NCBI RefSeq assembly: GCF_011050675.1
Contig: NZ_DRFI01000023.1
Length of the DNA stretch: 64,000 nucleotides
Strand: one strand, 5' to 3'
From: Maribacter sp.
Lineage (GTDB): Bacteria > Bacteroidota > Bacteroidia > Flavobacteriales > Flavobacteriaceae
Shown: in pieces, positions 27,872 to 48,064 of the stretch
Layout of the letters: every line of letters starts with the position of its first letter
How positions within the stretch are numbered: the stretch's first letter is position 1
The notes under the pieces: generated by a model
What the model was told of the DNA's origin: nothing
The model's database searches: none
The model's input: only the letters and a program-made list of their open reading frames with translations
Position numbers and translations under genes: made by a program

Positions 27872-28063
27872 ATGAGTAAAGGAACAGTAAAATTTTTCAA
27901 CGACACAAAAGGATTCGGTTTTATCACTGAAGAAGGAGTTGAAAAAGACCACTTTGTACACATTTCAGGTTTAATCGACGAAATTCGTGAAGGCGATGAA
28001 GTTGAATTCGAACTTAAAGAAGGAAACAAAGGATTAAACGCAGTGAACGTTAAAGTTATCTAA
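27872..28063 (+). CDS. Cold-shock protein (CspA family, 63 aa)
   Basis: MSKGTVKFFNDTKGFGFI...HFVHISGL...LNAVNVKVI. The track ORF was extended upstream to 27821. Confidence 0.85.
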   Translation: MSKGTVKFFNDTKGFGFITEEGVEKDHFVHISGLIDEIREGDEVEFELKEGNKGLNAVNVKVI

Positions 28064-28087: not shown

Positions 28088-28118
28088 AAAAGCCTTTCAC
28101 ATAGTGAAAGGCTTTTTT
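28088..28118. terminator. Bidirectional intrinsic terminator
   Basis: Stem gcctttcac (28092-28100), loop atag, stem gtgaaaggc (28105-28113), then T6, preceded by A5. Confidence 0.7.
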
Positions 28119-28119
28119 A

Positions 28120-28875
28120 TTACCGCTCATTCTTTAGTCTATCGAAATCTTTCTCTAATTGAAACAGCTTATCTTCTAGGTTATAATTAGTTTCCGGTAG
28201 TCTATGATAAAATACATATCTAACGCGCCACATTTCTTTAACATCTTTTAGTTGAAGTTCTATATCATCAACATTTTTATGCTCGGCACGTAAAACAAAT
28301 GTATCGTTCGTGATCAATAGTCTTCTTAAGATGATATCTTTTTCTGTTACAGCGAAAACCAAAGTCCCATTATTTAGTTTAGAATATACAGATGGCGGTA
28401 TCCACTCTCCAATAGCAATATCCTTCGGAAACATTCCTAATTCATTTTTGCTCATTTCTAAATTCTGTACGGTATACGCTCTAAATTTCTTATCAGGATT
28501 TATTGGCAACGTTAAAAAGGGTAAATCTTGTATGTAGGATTCCTTGTCAAAATATTTTATATAATCCTTTTGATTTAAGGTAGTTACACAGGGGACCTTT
28601 ACAAAAAATTCTTGCTCACCTAAATCTTGTTCAACCGTTAAATTACCTTTAAATTTCAATAAATTATTTACAGTTAATTCTGTAGTTAAGAGATCATCTA
28701 TAGGTATGCTAAAATAATTAGCAATTTTAATAAGTGTCTCTATTTTTGGTTCACTTCTTCCTTCTTCATATGCCCCTAAAGTGCCCCTTTTTAGGTCAAA
28801 TAGCTCTGCAAACGCCTGTTGGCTAAGACTTTTTAAACTTCTTATTTTTCTTATGTTTTTTCCGAAGTACGACAT
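28120..28875 (-). CDS. XRE-family HTH transcriptional regulator with a C-terminal domain of unknown function
   Basis: N-terminal HTH_XRE (IRKIRSLKSLSQQAFAELFDLKRGTLGAYEEG). The 180-aa C-terminal domain has no S24 peptidase motifs. Divergent from the PspA/flotillin block. Confidence 0.65.
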   Translation of the reverse strand: MSYFGKNIRKIRSLKSLSQQAFAELFDLKRGTLGAYEEGRSEPKIETLIKIANYFSIPIDDLLTTELTVNNLLKFKGNLTVEQDLGEQEFFVKVPCVTTLNQKDYIKYFDKESYIQDLPFLTLPINPDKKFRAYTVQNLEMSKNELGMFPKDIAIGEWIPPSVYSKLNNGTLVFAVTEKDIILRRLLITNDTFVLRAEHKNVDDIELQLKDVKEMWRVRYVFYHRLPETNYNLEDKLFQLEKDFDRLKNER

Positions 28876-29115
28876 TTTTTGCTAATATTATTTGCAATTA
28901 ATAAAAATATTATTATATTTGTCTAACAATATTAGCAAATATAATTTGTATTGCTAGTGTTTTGAGCAAGTTTTTTTATTAATGAATTCTAAAACACAAT
29001 ATTATGTTCATCCTAGTTGTTTACATTTTAGCGTTACTATTATAATATTAAGAAAGTGCACCGATATTATTTTGTATTATTGAACCTAAGAAATCACCTA
29101 CAAAAGCCAACACAA

Positions 29116-29511
29116 ATGAAAAACCATTTTAATATAACCAGAGATTATCTACTTGAATTAAACTTTAATATCGTTAAAGAAAATAGAGCTGATGGAATTA
29201 TGGTTGTTGAGAAGGAAGATTTTGGAATAAAGAATCTTATTCTAGGGGTATCTCCACCAATCTTGATTATGGAACAGTTTATATTCTCGGTACATAATCA
29301 GTCTGAAAAAATCTTCAGAAACTTACTTCAGAAGAATAGAGATATTATACATGGAGCTTTTGTTCTAGATGAAACCGCTAACCGTGTCATATTCAGAGAC
29401 ACTTTACAAATTGAGAATATGGATTTAAACGAGTTCGAAGCCAGTCTTAATTCTTTAAGCTTATTAATGAGCGAATACTCGGATCAAATAATTGAATTTT
29501 CTAAATACTAA
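29116..29511 (+). CDS. Hypothetical cytoplasmic protein, first gene of the PspA/flotillin block
   Basis: The ATG at 29116 is preferred; a GTG at 29056 is possible. 131 aa. No motif recognised. Confidence 0.45.
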   Translation: MKNHFNITRDYLLELNFNIVKENRADGIMVVEKEDFGIKNLILGVSPPILIMEQFIFSVHNQSEKIFRNLLQKNRDIIHGAFVLDETANRVIFRDTLQIENMDLNEFEASLNSLSLLMSEYSDQIIEFSKY

Positions 29512-29523
29512 AAATAAAAAATC

Positions 29524-30237
29524 ATGAATATATTTAAAAGACTATTTAAAATAGGAGAAGCTGAAACTAATTCCGCAATTGATAAAATGGAAGACCCTAT
29601 AAAAATGACCGAACAGGGCATTAGGGACATGAAGCTAGACTTGGAAAAAAGTTTAGAAGCTCTTGCACAAGTTAAAGCTCTTGCCATTCGTTCTAAGAAT
29701 GATCAAGACGTATATAAAAACAAGGCTAAAGAATACCAAGATAAAGCAATCATTATACTAAAGAAGGCTAACAGCAAAGAATTAGATGCTACTGAGGCAG
29801 ATAGGCTTGCCAAAGAAGCTTTAGTGCAAAAAGAAATTAATGAAAAGCAATTGGAAGCAACCAAAACTGAAACTGAGAAATTTGAAGCCAATGTTAGCCA
29901 AATGCAGGGTAATGTAGAAGCATTAAAATCTAATATAGGTAATTGGGAAAATGAACTTAAAACACTAAAAGCCCGTGTTAAAGTAAGTAATGCTACCAAA
30001 AACTTAAACAAGCAAATGGCTGAACTGGATAGTACTGGTACAGTTTCTATGCTTGAGAGGATGAAGGAGAAAATTGCCCAAGAAGAAGCCTTAGCCGAAG
30101 CTTATGGCGATATAGCAAACTCTAGTAAATCAATTGATGAAGAATTAGACAAAGCAGCCGATACAACAGAAGCAGCGGCAGATGATGAACTTCAAAAGTT
30201 AAAAGAACAATTAGGGTTTAATAAAACCAAAAAATAA
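29524..30237 (+). CDS. PspA/IM30 (Vipp1/LiaH) family protein
   Basis: 237-aa all-helical coiled coil with the PspA-like N-terminus MNIFKRLFKIGEAETNSAIDKMEDPIKMTEQGIRDMK. Confidence 0.8.
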   Translation: MNIFKRLFKIGEAETNSAIDKMEDPIKMTEQGIRDMKLDLEKSLEALAQVKALAIRSKNDQDVYKNKAKEYQDKAIIILKKANSKELDATEADRLAKEALVQKEINEKQLEATKTETEKFEANVSQMQGNVEALKSNIGNWENELKTLKARVKVSNATKNLNKQMAELDSTGTVSMLERMKEKIAQEEALAEAYGDIANSSKSIDEELDKAADTTEAAADDELQKLKEQLGFNKTKK

Positions 30238-30241
30238 AAAT

Positions 30242-30952
30242 TTGAATCAACTAATAGACATATTATTTTCTGAGGTAAATATCACGCTAACATTATTGCT
30301 GATACTTCTTTTAGTGTACTGGGTCATTACCATGATTGGTGGTATCGATTTTGATCTAGATATCGACGTGGACATTGATGCCGATGTTGATATGGACTTT
30401 GATCCTAGTATTGAAGGTGGTAACTTAGATTTTGAAGACATTTCGAATACCGAAGTAAACCAAGATGATGTTATTGGAAAAAGACGTAGACCATTAAAAT
30501 GGTGGCAAATTTTCCTTATTTACTTCAATTTTGTGGGTCTACCGTTTATGTTCACATTTACCTGTTGGATATTTATTTGGTGGTTGATTACAACTATTCT
30601 CACAACTTTGACGTTTACCTATGATAACTTTATAGGCTTCATAATTATGATCGCTGCCTTTTTCCCAGCATTGTTTGTAAACAAGCTATTTACCAGTCCT
30701 TTTAAGAGCTTTTTTAAGCGACTGAATAAAGATGGTGATGCACCAGTAGATTTTCTAGGTAGAGAAGCAATTTTGCTATCTAACATCACTGAGGATAAAA
30801 TGGGTAATGCAGAAGTAAAAGCAGAAGGCAACAGCCATTCAATATACGTGAAGTCTTTAGACAAAAAACCATTAAGCTATGGTAGTACAGTTCTTATTAT
30901 TAAAAGATCTGCTGATCATACTTATTTTTTAGTACAATCTTATAACCAATAA
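30242..30952 (+). CDS. NfeD-like (YqiJ-type) membrane protein with C-terminal OB-fold
   Basis: TM helix, alternating Asp tract (IDFDLDIDVDIDADVDMDFD), two to three further TM helices, and a C-terminal beta-barrel GREAILLSNI...GNAEVKAEGNSHSIYVKS...GSTVLIIKRSADHTYFLV. Immediately upstream of the SPFH gene, as in yqiJK/yuaFG. Confidence 0.7.
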   Translation: MNQLIDILFSEVNITLTLLLILLLVYWVITMIGGIDFDLDIDVDIDADVDMDFDPSIEGGNLDFEDISNTEVNQDDVIGKRRRPLKWWQIFLIYFNFVGLPFMFTFTCWIFIWWLITTILTTLTFTYDNFIGFIIMIAAFFPALFVNKLFTSPFKSFFKRLNKDGDAPVDFLGREAILLSNITEDKMGNAEVKAEGNSHSIYVKSLDKKPLSYGSTVLIIKRSADHTYFLVQSYNQ

Positions 30953-30967
30953 ATCTTAAATTAATTT

Positions 30968-33034
30968 ATGGAATCCATCTTTTCAATTATCGGTATAGGT
31001 CTTGGTGTTATCCTCTTCCTTATCATCGTTTATTTTGCAATCATTGCAATGTTCTACAAAAAAGTTCATCAAGGTCAAGCCCTGGTAAGAACTGGATTTG
31101 GAGGAACTAAAGTGGCAACGGACAAAGGTCTGTATGTAGTACCTGTTTTTCACCGTGTTGAAATCATGGATATTTCTGTAAAGAAAATTCAAATAGAAAG
31201 ACTCGCTACCGAAGGATTAATCTGTAAGGATAATATGCGTGCAGATATTAAAGTAGCATTCTTTGTTAGGGTAAATAACGAGGTTGATTTTATTAAAAAA
31301 GTAGCCCAGACCATTGGTGTACAAAGAGCGTCTCGTCAAGAAACTCTTGAAGAATTATTTGAAGCGAAGTTTTCTGAAGCGTTGAAAACCGTTGGTAAAA
31401 AATTCGATTTTATACAATTATACGAAGCCCGTAGAGAGTTTAGAGATGAGATCGTAGATATCATTGGTACAGACCTTAACGGGTACACTTTAGAAGATTG
31501 TGCTATTGATTATTTAGAACAAACCGCTGTAGCACACCTAAAGGCAGATAATATTCTTGATGCAGAAGGTATTAAGAAAATTAATGATTTAACTGCTGCT
31601 CAAAATGTTAAGTCAAATCTTATTAAGCGTGATGAGGAGAAAACCATCCGTAAGCAAGATGTAGAAGCAAGGGAAGCTATTTTGGAACTTGACAAACAGC
31701 TGGCTGAAAAAGAAGAACAACAAAAAAGAGAAATTGCAAACATTAAATCTCGTGAAGAAGCAGAAATTCTTAAAGTTTCTGAAGAAGAACTTTTAAAGTC
31801 GGAAACTGCTCGTATTGCAACCCGTGAAAAAGTTAAGGTTGCAGAAGAGAATATGGAGCGTCAAATAATTGTTGCGTTGAAAAACAAACAACGTACAGAT
31901 GCCGTAGAAACAGAAAGAGTAGAAAAAGATAGATTATTAGAGGCTACGGAAAGAGAAAGAGTAGTTACGCTTGCGCAAATAGAAAAAGAGAAAGTTGTTG
32001 AAGTAGAAAAAAAGAATATACAAGATGTTATTCGCGATCGTGTTACGCTAGAAAAAGGAGTAGTGGAAGAGCAAGAAAATATGAAAGATATTCAAGCTTT
32101 TAAAACTGCAGATCGAGATAAGCAGGTAAAAATTACTGTTGCCGAAGGAAATGCTCAAGAAGATTTAATTAAGACGATTAAGGCTGCTGAAGCTCAAAAA
32201 GAAGCTGCGAAACAAAAAGCAGAAGAAATCAATATTGAAGCATTGGCTCACAAAGAAGCTAGTGAAAAAGAGGCTGAAGCACGTAAAATTTTAGCGGAAG
32301 CCCAAGCGAAAGAAGAAGCTACAGTAGGTATGTCTGAAGCGCAAGTAATGCATGCTAAAGCAGATGCTTACGAACGTGAAGGTATTGTACAGGCTATTAT
32401 TATCGAGAAAAAAGCTAAAGCAGAGGCTGCCGGTATTGAAGCTAAAGCGGAAGCTAAGCGTAAAGATGGTATAGCAGAGGCTGACGTTATTAAAGAAAAA
32501 GCTTTGGCAGATGCCGCTGGTATCGAAGAGAAAGCTAATGCAATGAAGAAGTTAGATGGTGTAGGTAAAGAGCATGAAGAATTCAAATTGCGTTTAGATA
32601 AAGAATTACAAGTAGATCTTGCTCACATAAATATCCAAAAAGATATAGCAGATGCACAAGCAATGGTTATTGGTGATGCACTTAAAGCAGCTAAAATTGA
32701 TATTGTTGGTGGTGAAACAATGTTCTTTGACCAAATTATTGGGCAAATTACAAGAGCTAAAGGTTATGATAGATTAGTAGCCAATTCTACCAATATTCAA
32801 GATGTAAAAGATGCTATTTTAGGTAGCGACGATGTTAAGGGAAATCTATTAGGGAAAGTAAAGGAATTTGCTGATAAATATGGTGTATCATCTGAAGACC
32901 TTAAAAACTTAACTATTGCAAATTTACTGATGGACTTAAAAGCGAAGTCTAATGATAACGATGAACAGACGCTATTTAGCAACTTGTTCAACCTTGCAAA
33001 AGGTCTAGGTATGAGTGATAAAAAATTAAAGTAA
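30968..33034 (+). CDS. Flotillin-like SPFH/band-7 protein (YqiK/FloT-like)
   Basis: N-terminal TM helix. SPFH domain. About 400 aa of Ala/Glu/Lys-rich flotillin-type coiled coil (EAAKQKAEE..., EAEARKILAEAQAKEEA). Confidence 0.85.
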   Translation: MESIFSIIGIGLGVILFLIIVYFAIIAMFYKKVHQGQALVRTGFGGTKVATDKGLYVVPVFHRVEIMDISVKKIQIERLATEGLICKDNMRADIKVAFFVRVNNEVDFIKKVAQTIGVQRASRQETLEELFEAKFSEALKTVGKKFDFIQLYEARREFRDEIVDIIGTDLNGYTLEDCAIDYLEQTAVAHLKADNILDAEGIKKINDLTAAQNVKSNLIKRDEEKTIRKQDVEAREAILELDKQLAEKEEQQKREIANIKSREEAEILKVSEEELLKSETARIATREKVKVAEENMERQIIVALKNKQRTDAVETERVEKDRLLEATERERVVTLAQIEKEKVVEVEKKNIQDVIRDRVTLEKGVVEEQENMKDIQAFKTADRDKQVKITVAEGNAQEDLIKTIKAAEAQKEAAKQKAEEINIEALAHKEASEKEAEARKILAEAQAKEEATVGMSEAQVMHAKADAYEREGIVQAIIIEKKAKAEAAGIEAKAEAKRKDGIAEADVIKEKALADAAGIEEKANAMKKLDGVGKEHEEFKLRLDKELQVDLAHINIQKDIADAQAMVIGDALKAAKIDIVGGETMFFDQIIGQITRAKGYDRLVANSTNIQDVKDAILGSDDVKGNLLGKVKEFADKYGVSSEDLKNLTIANLLMDLKAKSNDNDEQTLFSNLFNLAKGLGMSDKKLK

Positions 33035-33097
33035 TCACACATTACCTAAGTATCTGAAAGTAAATTATTAATGTAATATAAAAGTCTAGTTATTTTT

Positions 33098-36000
33098 ATG
33101 GCAGAGGAATCCCGAACAGGAAATAAGGAAGAGCATATTTTAGATGGTGGTACTTATGATGTAATCAAAAACCGACTACAAAAGCAGAAGGAATTATTAC
33201 AAAGTAAGCTTACAAATCTAAATGATGATAGAAAAACCGTTTTTGGCTCATTAGAAACAAAACTTATTGCCAATGATAGGATCAATACAGAAAACAACTG
33301 TATTGCAAGAGATATTGTTTCTTTTGGAAATACCTGTCTGTTCGGGTATAACGTTCATTTTGGTCTTAGAACCGAAATAACGATTAAAGATGTTTTTAGC
33401 TGTTACCAGTTTGTTGATAATAGCTTTAAAGCTTCTAGTCTCGACCTTTTAGAGGACAACACCTTTAAAACTGACTTTACTAACTTATATAAGTATTACC
33501 GAAATACGATATTTTCCAATTTTGCCATAATTGGAAATTATCTACATATGGTTTTTCAGTTGAGTGATAGTCCTTCTGATATTAAAACGTTTAAGTGGCT
33601 ATTGGTAAACGATACCTTAAAATATATTGATAACCGTAGTGAGCATGAGTATAAATTTCCGGTACAGCAAGAATTTAAATGGCAAGAGGCTACTAGAGAT
33701 ATGCACCGTTATGGTATACATTCTCACGTATCTATAAAAGATCGTGTTTTTGTAGAAACTATTGGTGGTGATTTAACTATTAAAATAGAGGATAATACTG
33801 CTGAAGGGAAAGGTATTTTAGATGAGCCTGTAGAATATGTTGACCAAACATTAGATGATGGACAATATCGTTATGGTGATTTAGGAAACCTGCTAGTTTT
33901 AGAAATTAAACCGTTTCAAGAATCTCCTCGTTATTTTGTTTTCAATGACAAAATGAAAGAGGTTCAAAAAATCGATACGGTTAAGGATGCTTGTATTGTA
34001 TTGCCAGATGATCAAGGTATCATTTTCCCAACTGGTTACTATCTACAAACAGGGGAATACCATATATTTGATAATGCCATTGACAACGTAAAGTTTCAAG
34101 AGCGTATTATTTCTCCTAATGGTGAAGATTTTCTTTATGTATTCTATTCTGCTGTAGAAGGTTTATACAATCTAATGTCTTATAATATTATTAGTAAGGT
34201 TATTAAAACTCCTATTATCTGTAATGGCTTTACCATATTAGAAAACGGAGAGCTATGTTATTTTAAAACAGAACAGGAACAAACTAAACATCATGTAGTT
34301 CAAATTTGGCAAACTCCTTATCTAAAGGGTGATTATGTGCCTTCACAACATGAAGACACTTTACTTTACAAAATTGGAAACAAGGACATTGTAAAGGCTA
34401 TGGCCGAAGTCAATAGTTTAATTACACTTCTTAATAAGAATGATAATTATGCTGGTCTATATAGTGATATAGCAAAATTTTCTAAAGATATATTAGATGC
34501 ATATTACTGGTTGCCAGAACCTGAAACCCATCAATTAAACGAACCCATTCAAGAAATCAATAAAGCATCTAATGCCGCAATTGATGAATTTGAGAAAGTA
34601 GTTCAGCTTCGTAAAAATGCACACAACCAATCAAAATTAATACAACAAAACGCTGAGGAGTTATTTAATAAAATTAAGAGCACCTCTTTTAAAAGTATTG
34701 ATGAGTTTGTAGCACTACTGACTAGATTAAGATCGACCAGAGGTGAGTCTATCTCTTTAAAAGAAGTCAGATATATTGACTTAGAGTATTTAGAAACTCT
34801 TGAGGAACAAATTGAAGAACAGACAAAGAAAATATCTGAACGTTGTGTTCAGTTTCTTTTAAATCCAACTGCATTACAACCATATCATGATGCATTAAAG
34901 GAGAAAAAAGAATTCATTGGTACTGTTGAAAAAGTAATTGAAGCTAAAAAGAAGGAAGAGGAAATTAACGAGATTAGTACAGATCTAGAAATGTTAATTG
35001 ACATTGTTTCCAATTTAGAAATTGAAGATACTGCACATTCAACAAAAATCATCGATGACATTTCATTGATTTTTTCTACTATAAACGAACTTAAGGCAGC
35101 TTTAAAGAACAAAAGAAACTCTTTAGGTATATCTGAAGCTAAAGCTGAATTTGCAGCCCAATTGAAATTGATAGACCAAAGTATCATCAATTATTTGGAT
35201 ATGGCATCAACTCCAGAAAAATGTGATGAATATCAAACTAAAACATCTATTCAATTAGAAGAATTAGAGGGTAAATTCACCGACTTCGAAGAGTTTATTG
35301 AAACAATAATCGAGAAGAGAGAAGAGGTATATGCTGCTTTCGATGCAAGAAAAAATACCTTAATTGAAAAACGAAATAAAAAGTCTAGTGCATTAACCAG
35401 TGCATCCAATAGAATATTAAAGGGTGTTCAAAAAAAGGCACAAAGTTTTAATTCTGCAGTAGAGATTAATGGATACTTTGCTTCGGACTTAATGATTAAT
35501 AAGCTTCGTGATATTATTTCTCAATTACAAGAGCTTGATGATAGTGGTAAGGCAGAAGAAATTGAAACTCAGCTAAAAACAGCAAGAGAAGATGCGCTTA
35601 GAAAGCTAAAAGATAAACTAGATCTTTATGAGGAAGGTGATAGTATTATTAGGTTGGGCAAGCACAAGTTTGGTGTAAATAAACAGCAACTAGATTTAAC
35701 CATTGTTTTTCATAATAACGAGCTTAACTACCACCTAACAGGTACCGATTTTTATAAGAAGTTGAATAATGATGAGTTTGTGAAAAATCGTCACTTATGG
35801 AATCAAGAATATGTTTCTGAAACGGATGTTATATATCGCGCTGCATACTTAGCCTATAAAATATTCAAAAACGCCTCTGAAGATAAATTGATTTCTTTAA
35901 GTGAAGAACAACTATTAAAGGTTGTTCAAGAGCAAAGTAGAAATGATTACTCTGAAGGATATATAAAAGGAGTACATGATGTAGATGCTTCAAAAATACT

Positions 36001-37981
36001 GAAGCTACTTGTACGTAAACATCATGAGTTAGACTTACTTACTTACAGACCAGAAATACGTGGATACGCACAGTTTTTCTGGAACGATTTATCTGATGAT
36101 ATTAGAAGCGAACTAGATAAGAGTTTAAAGGCAGCAGGCGAGGTATTACAATATTTCCCTAACTCCAATGAGTACTCGTCTATTACAGATAAATTAAAAA
36201 AGAATATAGAATTATTTGCAGAAAGAACTAAGCTATTTGATTCATTACTGAGTACAGATATTGCTGAATATTTGTTTGAAGAGCTGAGATCGGACTCTGA
36301 ATTTATGTATAGCAGTCTTGCCATACAGCTTAAAGAAGATTTTTTGAAATTTCTAAAGTCTCAACAGGCAGATTTAAAATTCAAAAAAAGTGTAGAAGAG
36401 TCTCTTAATCTTGAAACCAAAGTTCGATTGGTTAAGCAATGGGTTGGAGCGTTCTTAAAATCTAAAAAGGAAGTTGATAATGCAACATATAGGTATGAGA
36501 ATGAAATAGTAGGCGCTCTTCTTTTTAGAGATGAGTCTGCCTCAAAAATAAAAGCTGTTTCACCAAACGAAGTAATTAAAGACCTTAGAGGTTCTCATGC
36601 TACTATTGTTGAAGGTATCTATTCTTTCAATTATCATGATTTCATTACGCGATTGAATTTGTTCGTATTGTATGAAGTTCCTGCTTTTCAAAAATTTAAA
36701 AAGACGAAACTTGAGATTACAGAGCAATTAAAGAATGATTTGAAGCTAGAGGAGTTTAAGCCAAGAGTACTTACTTCTTTTGTTCGAAATAAATTAATTG
36801 ATGAAGTATATCTTCCAATTTTCGGAAATAACTTAGCAAAACAATTAGGTACCGTAGGCGATAATAAACGTACGGACCGAATGGGTATGTTGCTTCTTAT
36901 ATCCCCCCCTGGTTACGGTAAAACGACTTTGATGGAATATATCGCTAATAGATTAGGCTTAATATTCGTTAAGATTAATGGTCCCGCAATTGGTCATGAA
37001 GTAACAAACGTTGACCCTGCTTCTGCAAAGAATAGTGCCGCAAGAGAAGAGCTTAAGAAATTGAATTTGGCTTTTGAAATGGGGAATAACGTCATGCTTT
37101 ATATTGATGATATTCAACACTGTAATCCAGAGTTTTTACAAAAGTTCATTTCCCTATCAGATGGTACACGTAAAATAGAAGGTGTATATGAAAACCAACC
37201 TAAAACTTATGATTTACGTGGTAAAAAATTCTGCGTTATCATGGCTGGTAACCCATATACAGAGAGTGGAGAAAAATTTAAGATTCCAGATATGTTAGCC
37301 AACCGTGCAGATATTTATAATCTTGGTGATATTATTGGTGAGACCGAGCATTTGTTCAGATTAAGTCTTGTTGAAAATTCGCTAACGGCCAATCCTGTTT
37401 TACAGCAATTAGCTAGCAAAGAGTTTGATGATGTATATACCTTAGTTAATCAAATTGAATCTAAATCTGATGAAGGTCAACTTATTGGAAATCATTCTAG
37501 CCAAGAAATTGAAGAATATAAAAAGGTTTTAGAGAAGGTTTTAAGGGTTAGAGATGTATTGTTAAAGGTCAACGCTACATACATTAAAAGTGCTGCTATG
37601 CAAGATGAATATCGTGTAGAGCCAACTTTTAAACTTCAAGGCTCTTATAGAGACATGAATAAATTGGTTTCTCAAATTGTTCCTATTATGAACGACAATG
37701 AACTAAACACACTATTACGTTCACATTACGAAAATGAAGCGCAAACGTTAACCGGTTCTGCCGAAGCCAACTTATTAAAGTATAACGAACTTATCGGTAA
37801 TCTTTCTACTGAAGAAGTAGAAAGATGGAACTCTATTAAGGAACAGTTTGTGAAAAATAATAAAATAAAAAGTTTTGGTAATGCTAATGAGATGGCGCAA
37901 GTACTTTCGCAAATGATGGAATTTTCTGAAAACTTAGCAGGTATTAAGTCCGTTTTAGAAAAAGGGCTTAATAATGACTAA
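33098..37981 (+). CDS. Giant (1627 aa) protein: N-terminal globular region, long coiled coil, C-terminal AAA+ ATPase (MoxR/AAA_5/McrB-like)
   Basis: Walker A LLLISPPGYGKTTL (~aa 1268). Walker B and post-Walker-B pattern MLYIDDIQHCNPEFLQKF (~aa 1332). Sensor region VIMAGNPY...ANRADIYNL. E/K/L-rich heptads from roughly aa 470-870. Confidence 0.7.
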   Translation: MAEESRTGNKEEHILDGGTYDVIKNRLQKQKELLQSKLTNLNDDRKTVFGSLETKLIANDRINTENNCIARDIVSFGNTCLFGYNVHFGLRTEITIKDVFSCYQFVDNSFKASSLDLLEDNTFKTDFTNLYKYYRNTIFSNFAIIGNYLHMVFQLSDSPSDIKTFKWLLVNDTLKYIDNRSEHEYKFPVQQEFKWQEATRDMHRYGIHSHVSIKDRVFVETIGGDLTIKIEDNTAEGKGILDEPVEYVDQTLDDGQYRYGDLGNLLVLEIKPFQESPRYFVFNDKMKEVQKIDTVKDACIVLPDDQGIIFPTGYYLQTGEYHIFDNAIDNVKFQERIISPNGEDFLYVFYSAVEGLYNLMSYNIISKVIKTPIICNGFTILENGELCYFKTEQEQTKHHVVQIWQTPYLKGDYVPSQHEDTLLYKIGNKDIVKAMAEVNSLITLLNKNDNYAGLYSDIAKFSKDILDAYYWLPEPETHQLNEPIQEINKASNAAIDEFEKVVQLRKNAHNQSKLIQQNAEELFNKIKSTSFKSIDEFVALLTRLRSTRGESISLKEVRYIDLEYLETLEEQIEEQTKKISERCVQFLLNPTALQPYHDALKEKKEFIGTVEKVIEAKKKEEEINEISTDLEMLIDIVSNLEIEDTAHSTKIIDDISLIFSTINELKAALKNKRNSLGISEAKAEFAAQLKLIDQSIINYLDMASTPEKCDEYQTKTSIQLEELEGKFTDFEEFIETIIEKREEVYAAFDARKNTLIEKRNKKSSALTSASNRILKGVQKKAQSFNSAVEINGYFASDLMINKLRDIISQLQELDDSGKAEEIETQLKTAREDALRKLKDKLDLYEEGDSIIRLGKHKFGVNKQQLDLTIVFHNNELNYHLTGTDFYKKLNNDEFVKNRHLWNQEYVSETDVIYRAAYLAYKIFKNASEDKLISLSEEQLLKVVQEQSRNDYSEGYIKGVHDVDASKILKLLVRKHHELDLLTYRPEIRGYAQFFWNDLSDDIRSELDKSLKAAGEVLQYFPNSNEYSSITDKLKKNIELFAERTKLFDSLLSTDIAEYLFEELRSDSEFMYSSLAIQLKEDFLKFLKSQQADLKFKKSVEESLNLETKVRLVKQWVGAFLKSKKEVDNATYRYENEIVGALLFRDESASKIKAVSPNEVIKDLRGSHATIVEGIYSFNYHDFITRLNLFVLYEVPAFQKFKKTKLEITEQLKNDLKLEEFKPRVLTSFVRNKLIDEVYLPIFGNNLAKQLGTVGDNKRTDRMGMLLLISPPGYGKTTLMEYIANRLGLIFVKINGPAIGHEVTNVDPASAKNSAAREELKKLNLAFEMGNNVMLYIDDIQHCNPEFLQKFISLSDGTRKIEGVYENQPKTYDLRGKKFCVIMAGNPYTESGEKFKIPDMLANRADIYNLGDIIGETEHLFRLSLVENSLTANPVLQQLASKEFDDVYTLVNQIESKSDEGQLIGNHSSQEIEEYKKVLEKVLRVRDVLLKVNATYIKSAAMQDEYRVEPTFKLQGSYRDMNKLVSQIVPIMNDNELNTLLRSHYENEAQTLTGSAEANLLKYNELIGNLSTEEVERWNSIKEQFVKNNKIKSFGNANEMAQVLSQMMEFSENLAGIKSVLEKGLNND

Positions 37982-38078
37982 CAATTTATAAGGTAGTTTA
38001 TTTTTTCTTTTATTCCTGAAATTCAGGCATCCACGTCAAAATAAAGATGTAATTTTGCACCCGCAAAAAAGCTGCATT

Positions 38079-38525
38079 ATGAAGCGTATTAATGAATATA
38101 AAAAACTCTTCGGAGTTGAGAAAGAGATTGAACTTAAAGCACTTAAGTCTACTTACAGAAATTTGGTGAAAGAATGGCACCCAGATAAATTTCAAGATGG
38201 TGACGAAAAAAGAGAAGAGGCTGAAGTTCAAAGTCGTCGTATCATTGACGGATACCACTTTCTAGTGAGTATCGCTCCTGAAACTAAAGAAGCAAACAAA
38301 GAGGTATACAACGAATCTATCAATTCTGGTGTTGCCGATTTTCAACATAATGGTTTGGTTTTAGAAGTTACTTTTGTTGACGGTACTACTTACGAGTACT
38401 TTGGTGTTACAAAACCTATTTTTCAAAAAATGATCAATTCTAACAAATTGAACAGATTTGCTAAAAGAAGTATTTTCCCAAATTACCTTTACAGAAAATC
38501 TAAACGTGACCTTCAAGAGGCATAG
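38079..38525 (+). CDS. J-domain protein fused to a KTSC domain
   Basis: ALKSTYRNLVKEWHPDKF with the HPD motif. C-terminal LVLEVTFVDGTTYEYFGVTKPIFQKM matches the KTSC pattern. ATG at 38079 (track start 38055 is TTG). Confidence 0.65.
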   Translation: MKRINEYKKLFGVEKEIELKALKSTYRNLVKEWHPDKFQDGDEKREEAEVQSRRIIDGYHFLVSIAPETKEANKEVYNESINSGVADFQHNGLVLEVTFVDGTTYEYFGVTKPIFQKMINSNKLNRFAKRSIFPNYLYRKSKRDLQEA

Positions 38526-38556
38526 TTTTACATAAATTAATGGTTACAATTAGCGC

Positions 38557-39858
38557 ATGAAAAATCAAGAAGAGATTTTATCGAAATTGAATATTGATGC
38601 GTTGAATCCGATGCAAGAGAGTGCCTTAGAGGTAATTTCTACATCGAATAATACCATTTTACTTTCACCGACCGGTACTGGAAAAACTTTGGCTTTTCTA
38701 CTACCGGTTTTGGATTTATTGGACCATAACAATCCAGAAGTACAAGTATTAATTTTAGTTCCTTCTCGTGAGTTGGCAATACAAATAGAACAAGTTATCC
38801 GTAATATGGGTACTGGTTTTAAAGTGAATGCCATTTATGGTGGTAGGGCGATGTCTAAAGATAAGATAGAGCTAAAACATACACCTGCAATTTTAGTCGG
38901 AACGCCTGGTAGAATTCTTGACCATTTTATGGCGGATCGTTTTACTAAAAAGCATATTAAAACATTAATTCTTGACGAATTCGATAAGTCTTTAGAAGTC
39001 GGATTTGAAGAGGAGATGACTGAAATTCTTGCGGAATTACCAAATCTTAAAAAACGTATTCTTACTTCTGCAACAGAGGCTGTTAAAATTCCCAAGTTTG
39101 TGGGAATGGAAAACCCTAGAAGAATCAATTATCTTAAGAAAGATACACCATCAAAACTTACGATAAGTACAGTTATCTCTGAAGAAAAAGATAAGTTGAA
39201 AACATTAGTTCAACTTTTAAAATATATTGGCGAAGAACCAGGTATTATCTTTTGTAATTTAAAAGATAGTATTGATACTGTTAGTTCGTTTCTAAGTCAG
39301 AAACATATTCTGCATGAGTGCTTTTCTGGTGGTATGGAACAGAAAGACCGCGAACGTGCTTTAATTAAATTTAGAAATGGTAGCAGTCGTATTTTAGTTG
39401 CAACTGATTTAGCCGGTAGAGGTATTGATATTCCTGAATTAAAATTTATCATTCATTACGAATTACCACAACGTATTGAAGAGTTTACGCATCGTAATGG
39501 TAGAACTGCTCGTGTAAATGCTACAGGTACCGCCTATGTTATAAAATGGGACCAAGAATCGTTACCTGGGTTTATTTCAAATTCAAAGCCAATTGGCATC
39601 GGTAAAACCAATAGGTTAGGGGACCCTTTTTGGGAAACGTTATTTATTTCTGGTGGCAGAAAAGATAAAATATCTAAAGGTGATATTGCCGGACTTTTCT
39701 TTAAACAAGGTGGTTTGAACAGAGAAGAATTAGGAGACATTGAACTAAAGCAAGATTGTGCTTTTGTAGCAGTCCCTAAAAGCAAATCAGATAAACTTGT
39801 AAACGAGTTAAACAACTCCCGATTAAAAAAGAAAAAAGTGCGTATTACCGTACTTTAA
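38557..39858 (+). CDS. DEAD-box ATP-dependent RNA helicase with DbpA-type C-terminal RNA-binding domain
   Basis: Q motif. PTGTGKT. DEFD variant of the DEAD box. SAT. HRNGRTAR. C-terminal GGRKDKISKGDIAGLF...VAVP. Confidence 0.85.
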   Translation: MKNQEEILSKLNIDALNPMQESALEVISTSNNTILLSPTGTGKTLAFLLPVLDLLDHNNPEVQVLILVPSRELAIQIEQVIRNMGTGFKVNAIYGGRAMSKDKIELKHTPAILVGTPGRILDHFMADRFTKKHIKTLILDEFDKSLEVGFEEEMTEILAELPNLKKRILTSATEAVKIPKFVGMENPRRINYLKKDTPSKLTISTVISEEKDKLKTLVQLLKYIGEEPGIIFCNLKDSIDTVSSFLSQKHILHECFSGGMEQKDRERALIKFRNGSSRILVATDLAGRGIDIPELKFIIHYELPQRIEEFTHRNGRTARVNATGTAYVIKWDQESLPGFISNSKPIGIGKTNRLGDPFWETLFISGGRKDKISKGDIAGLFFKQGGLNREELGDIELKQDCAFVAVPKSKSDKLVNELNNSRLKKKKVRITVL

Positions 39859-44755: not shown

Positions 44756-46087
44756 ATGAAACAATATATAATCATAGCAAGCATTTTATTTGCTCACTTT
44801 GCTTTTGCACAAGATGTAGAAACCAATACCGCCTCTAAAATTTGGTCTTTAGAAGATTGTATTACTTACGCAATAGAAAATAACATAACTATAAAGGATG
44901 CTGATTTAAATACCAGTATTTCTGAAGTAAGTTATAATAAAGCCAAATCAGCTAAGCTTCCAAACTTATTTGGTAGTGCTTCCCAAAACTTCTCAAACGG
45001 TACATCTATTGACCCAATTACCAGCGATTACGTTTCTGACCAAATACATAGTACCAATCTTGGAATAAATAGCTCCGTAACTCTTTTTCAAGGAAGTCAA
45101 TTAAATAATCAGGTAAAGCAAAATCAACTATTAATAGAACAGAATAGTTTATTGGCACAAGAAGCCAAAAACAATATTGTAATCAGCATTCTAGAATCTT
45201 ATTTACAAACCTTATACAGTAAAGAGGGGATTAGCATTGCCGAAAACAATTTAAGCGCTTCAGAAAAAGAGGTGCTACGAGCAAAATCTAGATTAGATGC
45301 CGGTACTATTGCATTAAGTGATTATACCGAAGCTCAAAGTCAGGCAGCAACTAATAAATACAATGTAATTGCTGCAAAAAATGATTACGAGCTTAACATC
45401 ATTAACCTAAAACAATTACTTGAATTATCGCCCTTAGAGGATTTAACTATTGAAACGGTTGATGAGAATCAAGATTTAATAAATCTAGAATTAAACAAAG
45501 AAGCTATTTACACCAATGCCCTATCGTATTTACCTGAAGTAGAGGCTAGCAAAACAAATATTCTAGTTAACGAAAAAGAGTTAGAAATAGCGAAAGGTGG
45601 TTATTTACCAACCCTTGCTTTAACAGGAAGTCTTGGTTCTGGTTACACCAGTATACGTGACAATACTTTCACCGATCAATTAGATGTCAATTTTAATCAA
45701 AGGTTAGGGCTAAGTTTAAGCATACCTATTTTCAATAGAAATCAGACAAAATCTGCTGTTCAGACCGCTTCATTTAATATAGAAAAAGCTGAGATTCAGA
45801 AACAAACTATTGAGAAAGAAGTAATTAAAAAGGTGGAAACAGCCTACCAAAATGCACTTTCATCACAGGAACAATTAGTGGCTGCAGAAGTCTCCCAAGA
45901 TGCAGCAGAACAGTCTTATAATCTAGCGCAGAAAAAATATGAGCTGGGCGACTTAAGTACTACCGATTTGGTAATTAGTCAAAACACCTTTACCAATGCG
46001 CAACAGAACTATTTACAATCAAAATACCTAAATATTTTATACCATCAATTATTACAATTCTATCAAGGAAACGATATTAAACTTTAA
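44756..46087 (+). CDS. TolC-family outer-membrane efflux protein
   Basis: Signal peptide. Two OEP repeats. 443 aa. First gene of a four-gene efflux operon. Confidence 0.8.
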   Translation: MKQYIIIASILFAHFAFAQDVETNTASKIWSLEDCITYAIENNITIKDADLNTSISEVSYNKAKSAKLPNLFGSASQNFSNGTSIDPITSDYVSDQIHSTNLGINSSVTLFQGSQLNNQVKQNQLLIEQNSLLAQEAKNNIVISILESYLQTLYSKEGISIAENNLSASEKEVLRAKSRLDAGTIALSDYTEAQSQAATNKYNVIAAKNDYELNIINLKQLLELSPLEDLTIETVDENQDLINLELNKEAIYTNALSYLPEVEASKTNILVNEKELEIAKGGYLPTLALTGSLGSGYTSIRDNTFTDQLDVNFNQRLGLSLSIPIFNRNQTKSAVQTASFNIEKAEIQKQTIEKEVIKKVETAYQNALSSQEQLVAAEVSQDAAEQSYNLAQKKYELGDLSTTDLVISQNTFTNAQQNYLQSKYLNILYHQLLQFYQGNDIKL

Positions 46088-46092
46088 TCAAA

Positions 46093-47316
46093 ATGAAAAA
46101 TAAAACAAAAATCATAATAGGAGGAATAGCGCTGGTAGTCTTAGCTTTTGTAGCATATAGCTTTATAAAAGGTGATGACAGCGTTGCTATTGAAGCGAAA
46201 ACCATAGCCGCTAAAAAAGGTGACGTTACCACTATGGTAACTGCAACAGGTACTATTGAGCCTATAAACCAAGTTGATGTTGGTACGCAAGTCTCTGGTG
46301 TTGTGGAGAAAGTATATGTTGATTACAATAGTGAAGTTAAAGAGGGGCAATTAATTGCGGAATTAGATAAAACGAATCTTAAAGCTTCCTCTACACAAGC
46401 ACAAGCGTCTTATGACAATGCTATTAGTCAAAGAAATTATTTGCAAACCATTTATGAAAGACAGAAATCGTTGTACGATAATCAAGTAATCAGCAAATCT
46501 GATTTTGACGATGCTGTTTACAATTACGAAACTGCAAAAGGCACAGTTACACAACGTTTGTCTGACTTGCAACAGGCCAAAACAAACTTAGGCTATGCAA
46601 ATATCTATTCTCCTATAGATGGTGTGGTACTATCAAGAGATATTGATGAGGGGCAAACAGTAGCCGCAAGCTACAGTACACCAACACTTTTTACCATTGC
46701 ACAAGATTTACAAGAAATGCAGGTAGAGGCCGATGTTGATGAGGCAGATATAGGAGTTGTAAAAGAAGGACAACGAGTAAGTTTCACTGTTGATGCTTAC
46801 CAAGGTCAAGAATTTGAAGGTGAAGTAACGCAGGTAAGATTAGATCCCACCATTACTTCAAATGTAGTTACCTACACAGTGGTTATCAAAGCTGATAATC
46901 CTGATTTAAAACTTAAACCAGGTTTAACGGCAACTATTTCGATTTACACCCTAGAACTAAAAGATGTGTTATCGGTAGAAGCAAAAGCGATCAATTTTAA
47001 GCCTACACCACCAGAAATGATGGCATACAACGAGCAGGAGAAGTTAACGGTAGAGCGTCCCAATAATGGACCACGAACAACCGATGAAGAAGTTGTTACC
47101 AAAGTTTGGGTTTTAGAATCTAATGGAGCTATTACTCCGAAACAAGTGAAATTAGGTGCAAGTGATGGAGTAAACGTTCAAATTTTAAGTGGTATTAATG
47201 AAGGTGACAAATTGGTATATAGTTTAAAATCCGAAACTACCCAGTCTGGTGTTGTAGCAGGCGGTACAGAAGAGAGTCCATTTATGCCACAACGCCCAGG
47301 AGGTAAAAAGAAATAA
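46093..47316 (+). CDS. Efflux periplasmic adaptor subunit (HlyD/MacA-like membrane fusion protein)
   Basis: N-terminal TM helix. Biotinyl/lipoyl-like hairpin. Coiled coil. Beta-barrel. C-terminal G-rich tail. Confidence 0.8.
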   Translation: MKNKTKIIIGGIALVVLAFVAYSFIKGDDSVAIEAKTIAAKKGDVTTMVTATGTIEPINQVDVGTQVSGVVEKVYVDYNSEVKEGQLIAELDKTNLKASSTQAQASYDNAISQRNYLQTIYERQKSLYDNQVISKSDFDDAVYNYETAKGTVTQRLSDLQQAKTNLGYANIYSPIDGVVLSRDIDEGQTVAASYSTPTLFTIAQDLQEMQVEADVDEADIGVVKEGQRVSFTVDAYQGQEFEGEVTQVRLDPTITSNVVTYTVVIKADNPDLKLKPGLTATISIYTLELKDVLSVEAKAINFKPTPPEMMAYNEQEKLTVERPNNGPRTTDEEVVTKVWVLESNGAITPKQVKLGASDGVNVQILSGINEGDKLVYSLKSETTQSGVVAGGTEESPFMPQRPGGKKK

Positions 47317-47318
47317 GC

Positions 47319-48062
47319 ATGAGTAAAGAAATCATTAAAATAGAAGACTTAAAACGTGAGTTCGTCATGGGCACAGAAACTGTTCATGCACTACGTGGAA
47401 TATCATTTTCTATAAAAGAAGGAGAATTTGTGACCATAATGGGATCTAGTGGTTCTGGTAAAAGTACAATGCTTAATATATTGGGCTGCCTAGACCAACC
47501 TACATCTGGTACTTATGAGATTGATGGTGTAAGCATGAAAGATTTAAGTAGAAATGAACTGGCTACAATTAGAAATGAGAAAATAGGATTCATTTTTCAA
47601 TCTTATAACCTTTTAGCTAGAACATCGGCAATAGAAAATGTAGAGTTACCATTGTTATATAACAGCAAGGTATCTACAGAGGAGCGAAGAGAACGCGCTA
47701 TTAAAGCCTTAGAAATGGTTGGCTTGGGAGATAGATTACATCATACACCTTCTCAACTTTCTGGTGGTCAACAACAACGTGTTGCCATTGCTAGATCACT
47801 AGTAAACAACCCAGTAATGATTTTAGCAGATGAGGCAACGGGTAATTTAGATACACGTACTTCTTATGAGATTATGTCTTTATTTCAAGAATTGAACAAG
47901 AAAGGTATCACCATCACCTTTGTTACTCACGAGCCAGATATAGCTACGTTTAGTAGTAGAACAATTGTATTAAAAGATGGGGATATCATGCAAGATTATC
48001 AAAATCATAAAATACAATCCGCAGCAGCAGAATTGGCAAAATTGCCTAAACAAGACGATTAA
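47319..48062 (+). CDS. ABC transporter ATP-binding protein (MacB/LolD-type)
   Basis: Walker A GSSGSGKST. Signature LSGGQQQRVAIAR. Walker B ILADEATGNLD. Confidence 0.85.
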   Translation: MSKEIIKIEDLKREFVMGTETVHALRGISFSIKEGEFVTIMGSSGSGKSTMLNILGCLDQPTSGTYEIDGVSMKDLSRNELATIRNEKIGFIFQSYNLLARTSAIENVELPLLYNSKVSTEERRERAIKALEMVGLGDRLHHTPSQLSGGQQQRVAIARSLVNNPVMILADEATGNLDTRTSYEIMSLFQELNKKGITITFVTHEPDIATFSSRTIVLKDGDIMQDYQNHKIQSAAAELAKLPKQDD

Positions 48063-48064
48063 TT

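Follow-up and report, generated by a model that had tools for sequence, protein, structure and literature searches.

In the 64,000-nucleotide stretch of Maribacter sp. DNA analysed here (hereafter, the window), positions 28,120 to 38,525 encode an XRE-family regulator and, divergently from it, a CesT/Tir-like chaperone, PspA/IM30, a short NfeD-like membrane protein, a flotillin, a giant AAA+ ATPase and a J-domain/KTSC protein. The first six of these genes are a discrete chromosomal cassette, in which the divergent gene encodes a predicted XRE-type repressor and the other five form a putative operon. The genes are as follows (aa, amino acids).

28120-28875, minus strand: XRE-family helix-turn-helix (HTH) regulator, 251 aa
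29116-29511, plus strand: CesT/Tir-like chaperone, 131 aa (counted from the 29116 ATG)
29524-30237, plus strand: PspA/IM30, 237 aa
30242-30952, plus strand: YqiJ/YuaF-type (short NfeD-like) membrane protein, 236 aa
30968-33034, plus strand: YqiK-type flotillin, 688 aa
33098-37981, plus strand: giant DUF3686/DUF7902/AAA+ ATPase, 1627 aa
38079-38525, plus strand: J-domain/KTSC gene

Every open reading frame (ORF) is present at the coordinates given in a preliminary description of this DNA, and the small gaps of 4-97 nt reported there are correct: from the CesT gene through the J-domain/KTSC gene, successive genes are separated by 12, 4, 15, 63 and 97 nt. The AT-rich control region noted beside the divergent XRE gene is likewise present, with 240 nt at 22.5% GC between the XRE and CesT genes. 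The run itself had been counted as seven genes; from 29116 to 38525 there are six. Moreover, co-directional genes continue past 38525 to at least 52 kb, and co-direction is therefore uninformative on whether the J-domain/KTSC gene belongs with its upstream neighbours.

Whether the giant gene stands beside SPFH, NfeD and PspA genes in relatives was a question raised in the preliminary description. We examined 80 loci from species-representative genomes that encode relatives of the giant protein, drawn from a pool of at least 585 regions of this kind. In 68 of the 80, tblastn placed a flotillin gene immediately before the giant gene and in the same orientation; among the other 12, nine have less than 1.6 kb of upstream sequence and three (L029, L052 and L070) truly lack a flotillin gene. 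A YqiJ-like gene was found in 50 loci by tblastn and in 59 by clustering. The XRE gene is present and divergent in 31-32 loci, all from Bacteroidota, and the CesT gene is directly upstream of the PspA gene in 29-30; the three genes occur together in approximately 31 loci, again all from Bacteroidota. Thus, the adjacency is kept in relatives, with PspA confined in this arrangement to the Bacteroidota.

In the Planctomycetota, Verrucomicrobiota, Kiritimatiellota, Desulfobacterota and Clostridia, the triad of YqiJ-like, flotillin and giant genes stands alone. The triad is also present in the Pseudomonadota, Actinomycetota and Deinococcota (records of Pseudomonas, Proteus, Vibrio, Halomonas, Streptomyces, Nonomuraea and Deinococcus), and its order is kept in at least nine phyla. 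Clustering of the 80 loci revealed no conserved gene downstream of the giant gene. In total, these observations support that the genes for XRE, CesT, PspA, the YqiJ-like protein, flotillin and the giant AAA+ protein are one conserved unit.

Outside the main cassette, PspA-type genes are tied to the triad independently, on plasmid pQBR103 and in four loci with DUF4178, DUF350 and spermine-synthase genes. In these four (L010, L031, L056 and L074), the giant gene is followed directly by genes for DUF4178, an unknown protein of 242-278 aa, DUF350 (YjfL-type) and a spermine/spermidine-synthase fusion; the DUF4178, DUF350 and spermine-synthase genes belong to another class of PspA-linked operons (Ravi et al. 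2024, PMC11237479). In pQBR103, a 425-kb environmental plasmid of P. fluorescens SBW25 (L084), a yjf-type PspA cluster lies beside the triad at 85-98 kb, in the order PspA, rhomboid, DUF2491, DUF350, DUF1190, glutathionylspermidine synthase, YqiJ-like hypothetical protein, SPFH protein and a 1748-aa 'DNA repair ATPase'. Two Hymenobacter loci have an ORF for a DUF559 (endonuclease-like) protein between the flotillin and giant genes (L036, 9521-9943; L038, 9341-9898), and in several other loci this gap holds unrelated ORFs of 80-240 aa; in the window it is 63 nt long and holds none.

The architecture is not new, because Ravi et al. (2024; mSystems 9:e00847-23, PMC11237479) list the same layout for Dokdonia donghaensis. 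They described an operon class joining CesT/Tir-PspA with Band-7/flotillin, a YqiJ/YuaF-type protein with three transmembrane segments and a beta-propeller/coiled-coil/AAA+ protein, and their Table S3 gives this layout in D. donghaensis DSW-1 (ANH61663.1), including a divergent 'cHTH+Protease' gene. They also reported that an abbreviated Band-7/YqiJ(/AAA+) operon without PspA is more widespread and, by comparative genomics only, proposed a chaperone-like role in membrane dynamics. The Dokdonia operon has the same six genes in the same order and orientation, with no structural difference, and its giant orthologues are 73% identical to the window protein. We therefore abandon the view of the preliminary description that the coupling matches no described system, and have high confidence that the cassette in the window is an orthologue, with all six genes, of the published class. 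What the present analysis adds are synteny counts over 80 loci, boundaries from presence and absence, an operator-like motif, an Asp-Asp Walker B and the exclusion of the J-domain gene.

The boundaries come from two Zobellia genomes, 'Zobellia uliginosa' (L089) and CP119758.1 (L086), in which the flanks are collinear with a clean replacement between them. The cassette-bearing genome has 9.96 kb at this site, which is exactly the XRE gene to the giant gene plus an intrinsic terminator, and the other genome has 0.55 kb. Because this pair spans exactly XRE to giant, the cassette comprises six genes, without those for J-KTSC, DbpA and CspA. The left junction of the 9.96-kb difference is a hairpin that is homologous to one in the window:

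28089-28115: left cassette boundary, a hairpin and then a T-run (AAAGCCTTTCAC-ATA-GTGAAAGGCTTT), common to the convergent CspA and XRE genes and read from the sequence

At the cassette-less site of CP119758.1, there is an ORF of 99 aa (L086, 9735-10034) with a lipoprotein-like N terminus; by our own reading, its Asp-rich segments look EF-hand-like.

The preliminary description had placed the J-domain/KTSC gene in the module. As judged from its sequence, the J-domain is genuine (DnaJ 28.6 bits against a cut-off of 27.8; HPD at aa 34-36), and the protein also matches KTSC (E 9e-12). The gene adjoins the 3' end of the giant gene in only one of the 80 loci, the other Maribacter locus. In 'Zobellia uliginosa', it is on the opposite side of the cassette, in the order GreA, J-KTSC, DEAD, DbpA, CSD, [XRE, CesT, PspA, YqiJ-like, Band_7, giant], DUF6515, SDR. 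Elsewhere it keeps company with cold-shock genes: the Zobellia order is GreA, J-KTSC, DEAD, DbpA, CSD, and in Aequorivita the gene is beside those for DbpA, a desaturase, CSD and an ice-binding protein. The J-KTSC protein itself is very conserved, with 77-97% identity across Flavobacteriaceae genera. We conclude that the gene is not part of the module and that, in the window, a rearrangement put the J-KTSC and DbpA genes at the position expected for the cassette terminator. The start codon of J-KTSC is preceded, at a distance of 20 nt, by a TAATTTTG box; given this box and the rearrangement, the gene may have its own promoter.

J-KTSC, a DbpA-type DEAD-box helicase and CspA form a recurring neighbourhood (window 27872-28063 and 38079-39858; L086, L087 and L089), with GreA and a second DEAD helicase as extras in Zobellia and a fatty-acid desaturase, a CMAS-type methyltransferase and an ice-binding protein in Aequorivita. 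The J-KTSC protein also has a weak, sub-threshold match to the NCBIfam model 'cold adaptation protein ActJ'. Together, the three genes look like a separate cold-adaptation cluster that is merely interrupted or abutted by the cassette. The cold/membrane-stress flavour that the CspA and DbpA genes had been thought to give to the cassette belongs to this cluster; for the cassette they are unrelated neighbours. Further downstream in the window, at 44756-49285, there is an efflux operon for a TolC-like outer-membrane factor, an HlyD-type adaptor and a MacB-type ABC ATPase and permease, and the same MacB genes flank the Zobellia cold-shock cluster.

The product of the gene at 29116, previously called hypothetical, is a CesT/Tir-like chaperone (PF22550, CesT_Tir_1; E 3.3e-54, 182.8 bits against a cut-off of 27, at aa 21-150 of a longer ORF). 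The longer ORF has a GTG at 29056 as its first codon, but homologues and Pfam match both begin with the 29116 ATG. The family profile matches E. coli YjfI weakly, at 10.5 bits. The identification of PspA/IM30 at 29524 was correct, with PF04012 matching over nearly the full length (aa 2-229; E 3.8e-43, 148 bits against a cut-off of 33.9). With a profile of PspA orthologues, the E. coli proteins PspA and YjfJ score 48 and 32 bits, respectively. The N-terminal helix of the window PspA is MNIFKRLFKIGEAETNSAIDKMEDP.

The 236-aa membrane protein encoded at 30242 had been described as NfeD-like. Neither this protein nor 22 homologues match the Pfam NfeD (PF01957) or YqiJ model, even at E up to 1, and in direct comparison with E. 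coli YqiJ the protein gave a BLAST E of 7.9 and, with a shallow profile, an hhalign probability of 1%. By contrast, a profile built from 59 syntenic orthologues aligns with E. coli YqiJ end to end at 32.6 bits, while 50 composition-matched shuffles of YqiJ scored at most 0.8 bits. The protein has three hydrophobic segments and a small C-terminal beta domain; a single-sequence AF2 model, of which only the topology is usable (pLDDT 55), has three long helices and four strands. Homologues are labelled 'OB-fold-containing' or 'DUF1449'. YuaF and YqiJ are regarded as NfeD homologues and are partners of flotillin-type SPFH proteins (PMC2636767), and Pfam NfeD is unmatched; therefore, the term NfeD-like is acceptable solely in the YqiJ/YuaF sense, and the strict Pfam assignment is not.

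30347-30403 (aa 36-54): acidic DxD-repeat loop of the YqiJ-like protein, DFDLDIDVDIDADVDMDFD, between hydrophobic segments 1 and 2

Several Asp residues of this loop are invariant in 23 YqiJ-like homologues, and in the DNA the loop takes the form of a degenerate 24-nt tandem repeat. Cations or polyamines may be bound here.

For the protein encoded at 30968, the assignment to the flotillins (SPFH) is confirmed by Band_7 (E 2e-11, 44.6 bits against a cut-off of 23.6) and by homology to E. coli YqiK (31% identity, E 1e-45). Its layout is an N-terminal membrane anchor (hydrophobic segment, aa 1-34), the SPFH domain and a long helical region rich in Glu, Ala and Lys.

The 1627-aa product encoded at 33098 is an AAA+ protein, as had been proposed. 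AAA (PF00004; E 4.5e-8, 34 bits against a cut-off of 21.2), DUF3686 (E 1e-175, 584.7 bits) and DUF7902 (86.9 bits) all match above their cut-offs, and the Walker motifs are invariant at the positions given here.

33197-34507, plus strand: DUF3686 beta-rich domain
~34538-36847, plus strand: DUF7902 and helical region
36890-37357, plus strand: single AAA+ module, then a conserved C-terminal domain
36902-36928, plus strand: Walker A, SPPGYGKTT, aa 1269-1277, invariant in 65 sequences
37097-37120, plus strand: Walker B region, LYIDDIQH, aa 1334-1341; D1337, D1338, Q1340 and H1341 invariant
37241-37312, plus strand: sensor-1 region, MAGNPYTESGE...PDMLANRAD, aa 1382-1405; candidate sensor Asn N1385 and Arg R1403

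In the alignment of 65 sequences, which are 28-73% identical to the window protein, N1385, P1386 and R1403 are invariant, as is the segment NP..E...G..F..P..L.NR; moreover, the C-terminal motif YR.EP.FKLQGSYR is conserved and there are conserved islands in mid-protein at approximately aa 839-964. The acidic pair of Walker B in this family is Asp-Asp in place of the usual Asp-Glu. In Pfam, AAA and AAA_5 score much the same against each of the 33 family members tested, and in our own reading the sensor-1 region resembles MoxR/AAA_5. In the PDB, a sequence search and profile searches using either the AAA+ region or the entire protein matched only approximately 40 residues around Walker A, in p97/Cdc48-type proteins, and found no solved relative outside the P-loop region. 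The protein has no hydrophobic segment by hydropathy and no protease domain by Pfam. As to whether the giant protein belongs to a well-characterised family, it falls into a defined Pfam family (DUF3686/DUF7902); an experimentally characterised one it is not, as far as the literature searched goes, in which no paper mentions DUF3686 or PF12458.

The NCBI label of the giant protein is "DNA repair ATPase". If the protein were a DNA-repair ATPase, as the NCBI and Pfam descriptions have it, its adjacency to membrane genes would be incidental. What speaks for this is the label alone ('DNA repair ATPase' or 'ATPase involved in DNA repair') together with a weak RuvB match; this match covers approximately 45 residues around Walker A and is far below the cut-off. 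Pfam detected no nuclease, helicase or DNA-binding domain, and the giant gene, which is beside flotillin in many phyla, is never consistently beside a repair gene in the 80 loci. On this evidence from domains and gene context, we consider a role in DNA repair very improbable. The label probably stems from coiled-coil similarity to SMC/SbcC-type proteins and is almost certainly misleading.

The giant protein has at least 5014 homologues and, at 50% identity, 923 clusters. The window protein is 100% identical to a protein from a marine-sediment metagenome and 97% identical to those of Maribacter stanieri and Maribacter sp. Hel_I_7, and identity declines more or less in step with taxonomic distance, from 88-97% within Maribacter to 66-73% in other Flavobacteriaceae and approximately 50% in the remaining Bacteroidota. 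A comparison of the window with 'Zobellia uliginosa' (L089) gave 87-96% amino-acid identity for the module proteins but only 55-71% identity at the third codon positions of conserved residues. Thus, the module has been under strong purifying selection and was not recently transferred; recent horizontal transfer between the two, a candidate in view of module identities of 87-96% against 69.5% for DbpA, was rejected because third codon positions have diverged too. As identity follows taxonomy and purifying selection is strong, the pattern looks like vertical inheritance of a core stress function.

These data also bear on the phage-defence theme raised in the preliminary description. In a system of this kind, the XRE regulator would release membrane-acting PspA and flotillin effectors on infection, with the large NTPase as sensor and driver. 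Defence systems often contain large NTPases, one Zobellia genome has the cassette while another lacks it, megaplasmids carry a few copies, and the HTH domain of the XRE protein weakly matches PADLOC models, these being generic regulator ('control protein') models only (capH, E 3e-4, included). By contrast, in PADLOC-DB 2.0 the CesT, PspA, YqiJ-like and flotillin proteins have no match, and the giant protein has only a weak AAA-domain match (mad8, E 0.0016), so that none of the five operon proteins has a significant one. Relatives were found in none of 2.9 million viral contigs or 50,697 phage records, and in 13 of 72,556 plasmid records, mostly megaplasmids or chromids. The flanks in the window hold metabolic enzymes and the efflux system and no integrase, restriction-modification or toxin genes, and there are no recurrent defence neighbours among the 80 loci. 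Given these observations and the signs of vertical inheritance, we regard an anti-phage or abortive-infection function as quite unlikely.

The XRE regulator has an HTH_3 domain (E 1e-12). Its C-terminal half weakly resembles the S24/LexA fold (Peptidase_S24, E 0.006; 16.6 bits against a cut-off of 23.3). A conserved Ser/Lys catalytic pair is absent: in 32 XRE orthologues, no Ser or Lys is conserved at 60% or more past aa 75. LexA-like self-cleavage is therefore unlikely, and SOS-type control through an active S24 domain was rejected.

The XRE-CesT intergenic regions have a near-palindrome in common, TTGCWAA-N5-TTWGCAA. Over 32 XRE-bearing regions (31 fetched loci and the window), and counted in the same sequences in which it was defined, this operator-like motif occurs at 3.75 per kb within 400 nt beside the XRE gene and at 0.07 per kb in the rest of the same loci, approximately a 50-fold difference. 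Copies with zero mismatches are at a fixed offset in many Bacteroidota genera; among the 32 regions, the motif is absent from the Hymenobacter loci and two others. In the window, we find the following elements.

28879-28897: operator-like site O1, TTGCTAATATTATTTGCAA, which fits TTGCWAA-N5-TTWGCAA without mismatch, at 4 nt from the start codon of the XRE gene
28891-28894: candidate -33 element TTTG, within the right half of O1
28914-28921, plus strand: candidate Bacteroidota -7 box of the CesT-to-giant operon, TATATTTG (TAnnTTTG), 19 nt after the TTTG of O1
28920-28938: operator-like site O2, TGTCTAACAATATTAGCAA, two mismatches, covering the presumed start of transcription and the tail of the -7 box
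28943-28936, minus strand: TATATTTG
28951-28969: operator-like site O3, TTGCTAGTGTTTTGAGCAA, two mismatches

Bacteroidota promoters follow a -33/-7 pattern (TTTG, TAnnTTTG). The TTTG of O1 and the TATATTTG box fit this pattern and are a putative promoter; in the Flavobacteriaceae, Chryseobacterium and Bacteroides loci inspected visually, the operator is followed after 16 nt by a TAnnTTT(G/A) box. On this basis, the XRE protein is a predicted repressor, with putative sites overlapping divergent promoters. A scan for consensus sigma-70 promoters and terminators gave no more sites than shuffled sequences, the consensus being unsuited to Bacteroidota promoters. There is one further operator-like copy with a single mismatch inside the XRE coding sequence (ATGCTAAAATAATTAGCAA, 28706-28724), approximately 150 nt from the XRE start, which may be a chance occurrence or an auxiliary site. 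A second conserved element, TTTTGTAWTATTRA, is found at approximately 29078-29095, some 30-45 nt upstream of the CesT start, and in many Flavobacteriaceae loci; it could be a proximal promoter or leader element. Shuffled sequences fold as well as the putative leader of 190 nt (z +0.97), and Rfam gave nothing above threshold across 27.5-39 kb.

What might the cassette do? On balance, we lean towards a repressor-controlled module for stress response and maintenance at the inner membrane, in which the giant AAA+ protein remodels flotillin assemblies, PspA assemblies or both. The preliminary description had suggested a membrane-microdomain stress or defence module; membrane scaffolding and stress fit the conserved partners best, and the defence part is not supported. 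In the mechanism that we propose, an XRE dimer would sit on the TTGCWAA-N5-TTWGCAA sites over the -33/-7 elements and its own promoter, keeping both promoters off until an envelope signal releases it. Flotillin and its YqiJ-type partner would then build an SPFH cage or scaffold at the inner membrane, on its cytoplasmic side, and the CesT-like protein would hold PspA assembly-competent until PspA polymerises on damaged membrane. The giant ATPase would dock by its N-terminal beta-rich domain and long helical arm and would spend ATP to assemble, disassemble or recycle the scaffolds, or to extract scaffold clients. Because the ATPase accompanies flotillin and YqiJ but PspA only sometimes, the flotillin/NfeD pair is the most likely primary partner.

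Known systems share parts of this arrangement. In E. coli yqiJK and B. subtilis yuaF-floT, the order is likewise NfeD-like gene and then flotillin gene (PMC2636767), and the E. coli pair corresponds to the window proteins (YqiK at 31% identity; YqiJ by the profile); however, the yqiJK locus lacks genes for a giant ATPase, PspA, CesT and XRE, and the acidic DxD loop, long in the window protein, is much shorter in E. coli YqiJ. In B. subtilis, an SPFH protein brings PspA to the membrane, and in pspA-ydjGHI (samGHI) PspA and an SPFH protein are likewise encoded together, with recruitment through integral membrane partners (PMC8581546). This operon differs in that YdjI is not a classical flotillin, the membrane partners are YdjG and YdjH, and an AAA+ ATPase and a CesT-like chaperone are lacking. 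E. coli yjfIJKLMC resembles the window in its pair of a CesT-like protein (YjfI) and a PspA paralogue (YjfJ), and yjf-type genes are beside the triad in pQBR103 and four Bacteroidota loci. By contrast, yjfIJKLMC has polyamine-linked genes, whereas genes for DUF350, DUF2491, DUF1190 and a polyamine ligase are missing from the window, and the match of the CesT profile to YjfI is the weak one noted above.

PspA/IM30 is a member of the ESCRT-III superfamily, and its gene shares an operon with that of an AAA+ ATPase, a likeness to ESCRT-III and Vps4. Nevertheless, no MIT domain or Vps4-type features were detected in the giant protein, its similarity to classical AAA proteins is limited to the surroundings of Walker A, and it is flotillin, not PspA, that its gene accompanies. 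Ravi et al. (2024, PMC11237479) drew the Snf7/Vps4 parallel for a different PspA-linked AAA+ ATPase operon. SPFH/NfeD cages, and HflK/C-FtsH as an SPFH cage paired with an AAA+ machine, are described in two papers (PMC13086221; PMC13220708); HflK/C-FtsH and prohibitin/m-AAA, with an SPFH cage and an AAA+ machine at the membrane, resemble flotillin and the giant protein. FtsH, however, is a membrane-anchored classical AAA protease, and the giant protein has neither anchor nor protease domain, a divergent AAA+ module and an N-terminal extension of approximately 1250 aa. Because the matches do not settle the AAA+ clade of the giant protein, the analogy to Vps4 or FtsH is functional and not phylogenetic.

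An alternative is membrane-protein quality control, in which the flotillin/YqiJ cage would corral clients and the giant protein would be an unfoldase or extractase, a protease-less analogue of HflK/C-FtsH or prohibitin/m-AAA. The target would be the clients and not the scaffold, and PspA would only patch the resulting lesions. SPFH cages with AAA+ machines, and an ATP-independent holdase activity of FloA-NfeD, are precedents in the same two papers (PMC13086221; PMC13220708). The triad is kept without PspA in most phyla, and the closest similarity of the Walker A region is to unfoldases of the Cdc48/p97 type. On the other hand, the giant protein has no recognisable pore-loop motif besides having no protease domain, its scores with AAA and AAA_5 are equal, an Asp-Asp Walker B is unusual for a processive unfoldase, and the architecture of a long helical arm with a beta-rich domain better resembles that of an adaptor or a scaffold-binding protein. 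We think quality control of this kind unlikely; in its client-extraction form, it is a serious variant of the scaffold-remodelling module set out above.

Several points weigh against scaffold remodelling by the giant ATPase and against the control that we propose for it. The Asp-Asp Walker B may mean slow or regulated hydrolysis, or a role that is switch-like and not motor-like. The AAA+ module matches AAA and AAA_5 equally, and in the PDB only its P-loop region is matched. The N-terminal domain is a candidate beta-propeller, but its AF2 model is mediocre (pLDDT 63, from an alignment limited to 66% identity or more), and in Foldseek propeller proteins dominate its top matches at TM-scores of only 0.1-0.2. 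The five-gene operon is read from the gaps between genes, and the motif density carries the circularity stated with it. Finally, the literature searched contains no experiment on any member of the giant-ATPase family.

The cassette matters because the function of bacterial flotillins and NfeD proteins is unsettled, as is how PspA polymers are assembled and recycled without a dedicated ATPase; it connects a single AAA+ protein, of great size and under strong constraint, with flotillin, an NfeD-like protein and, in the Bacteroidota, PspA. With the architecture already known, the remaining question is biochemical. Of practical value here are the six-gene boundaries, the candidate operator and promoter and the invariant catalytic residues available for mutation; the J-domain, DbpA and CspA genes can be dropped from models of the cassette. 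P. fluorescens plasmid pQBR103 and Proteus mirabilis are possible tractable carriers of the triad. We tentatively put forward a more specific possibility, by analogy with Vps4: that the DUF3686 giant protein is a dedicated ATP-driven remodeller of flotillin/NfeD (SPFH) cages, a Vps4-like counterpart, which in its Bacteroidota version is tied to a chaperoned PspA and an XRE repressor. If this were true, a never-studied partner would drive the active turnover of bacterial flotillin assemblies in at least several hundred species and at least nine phyla.

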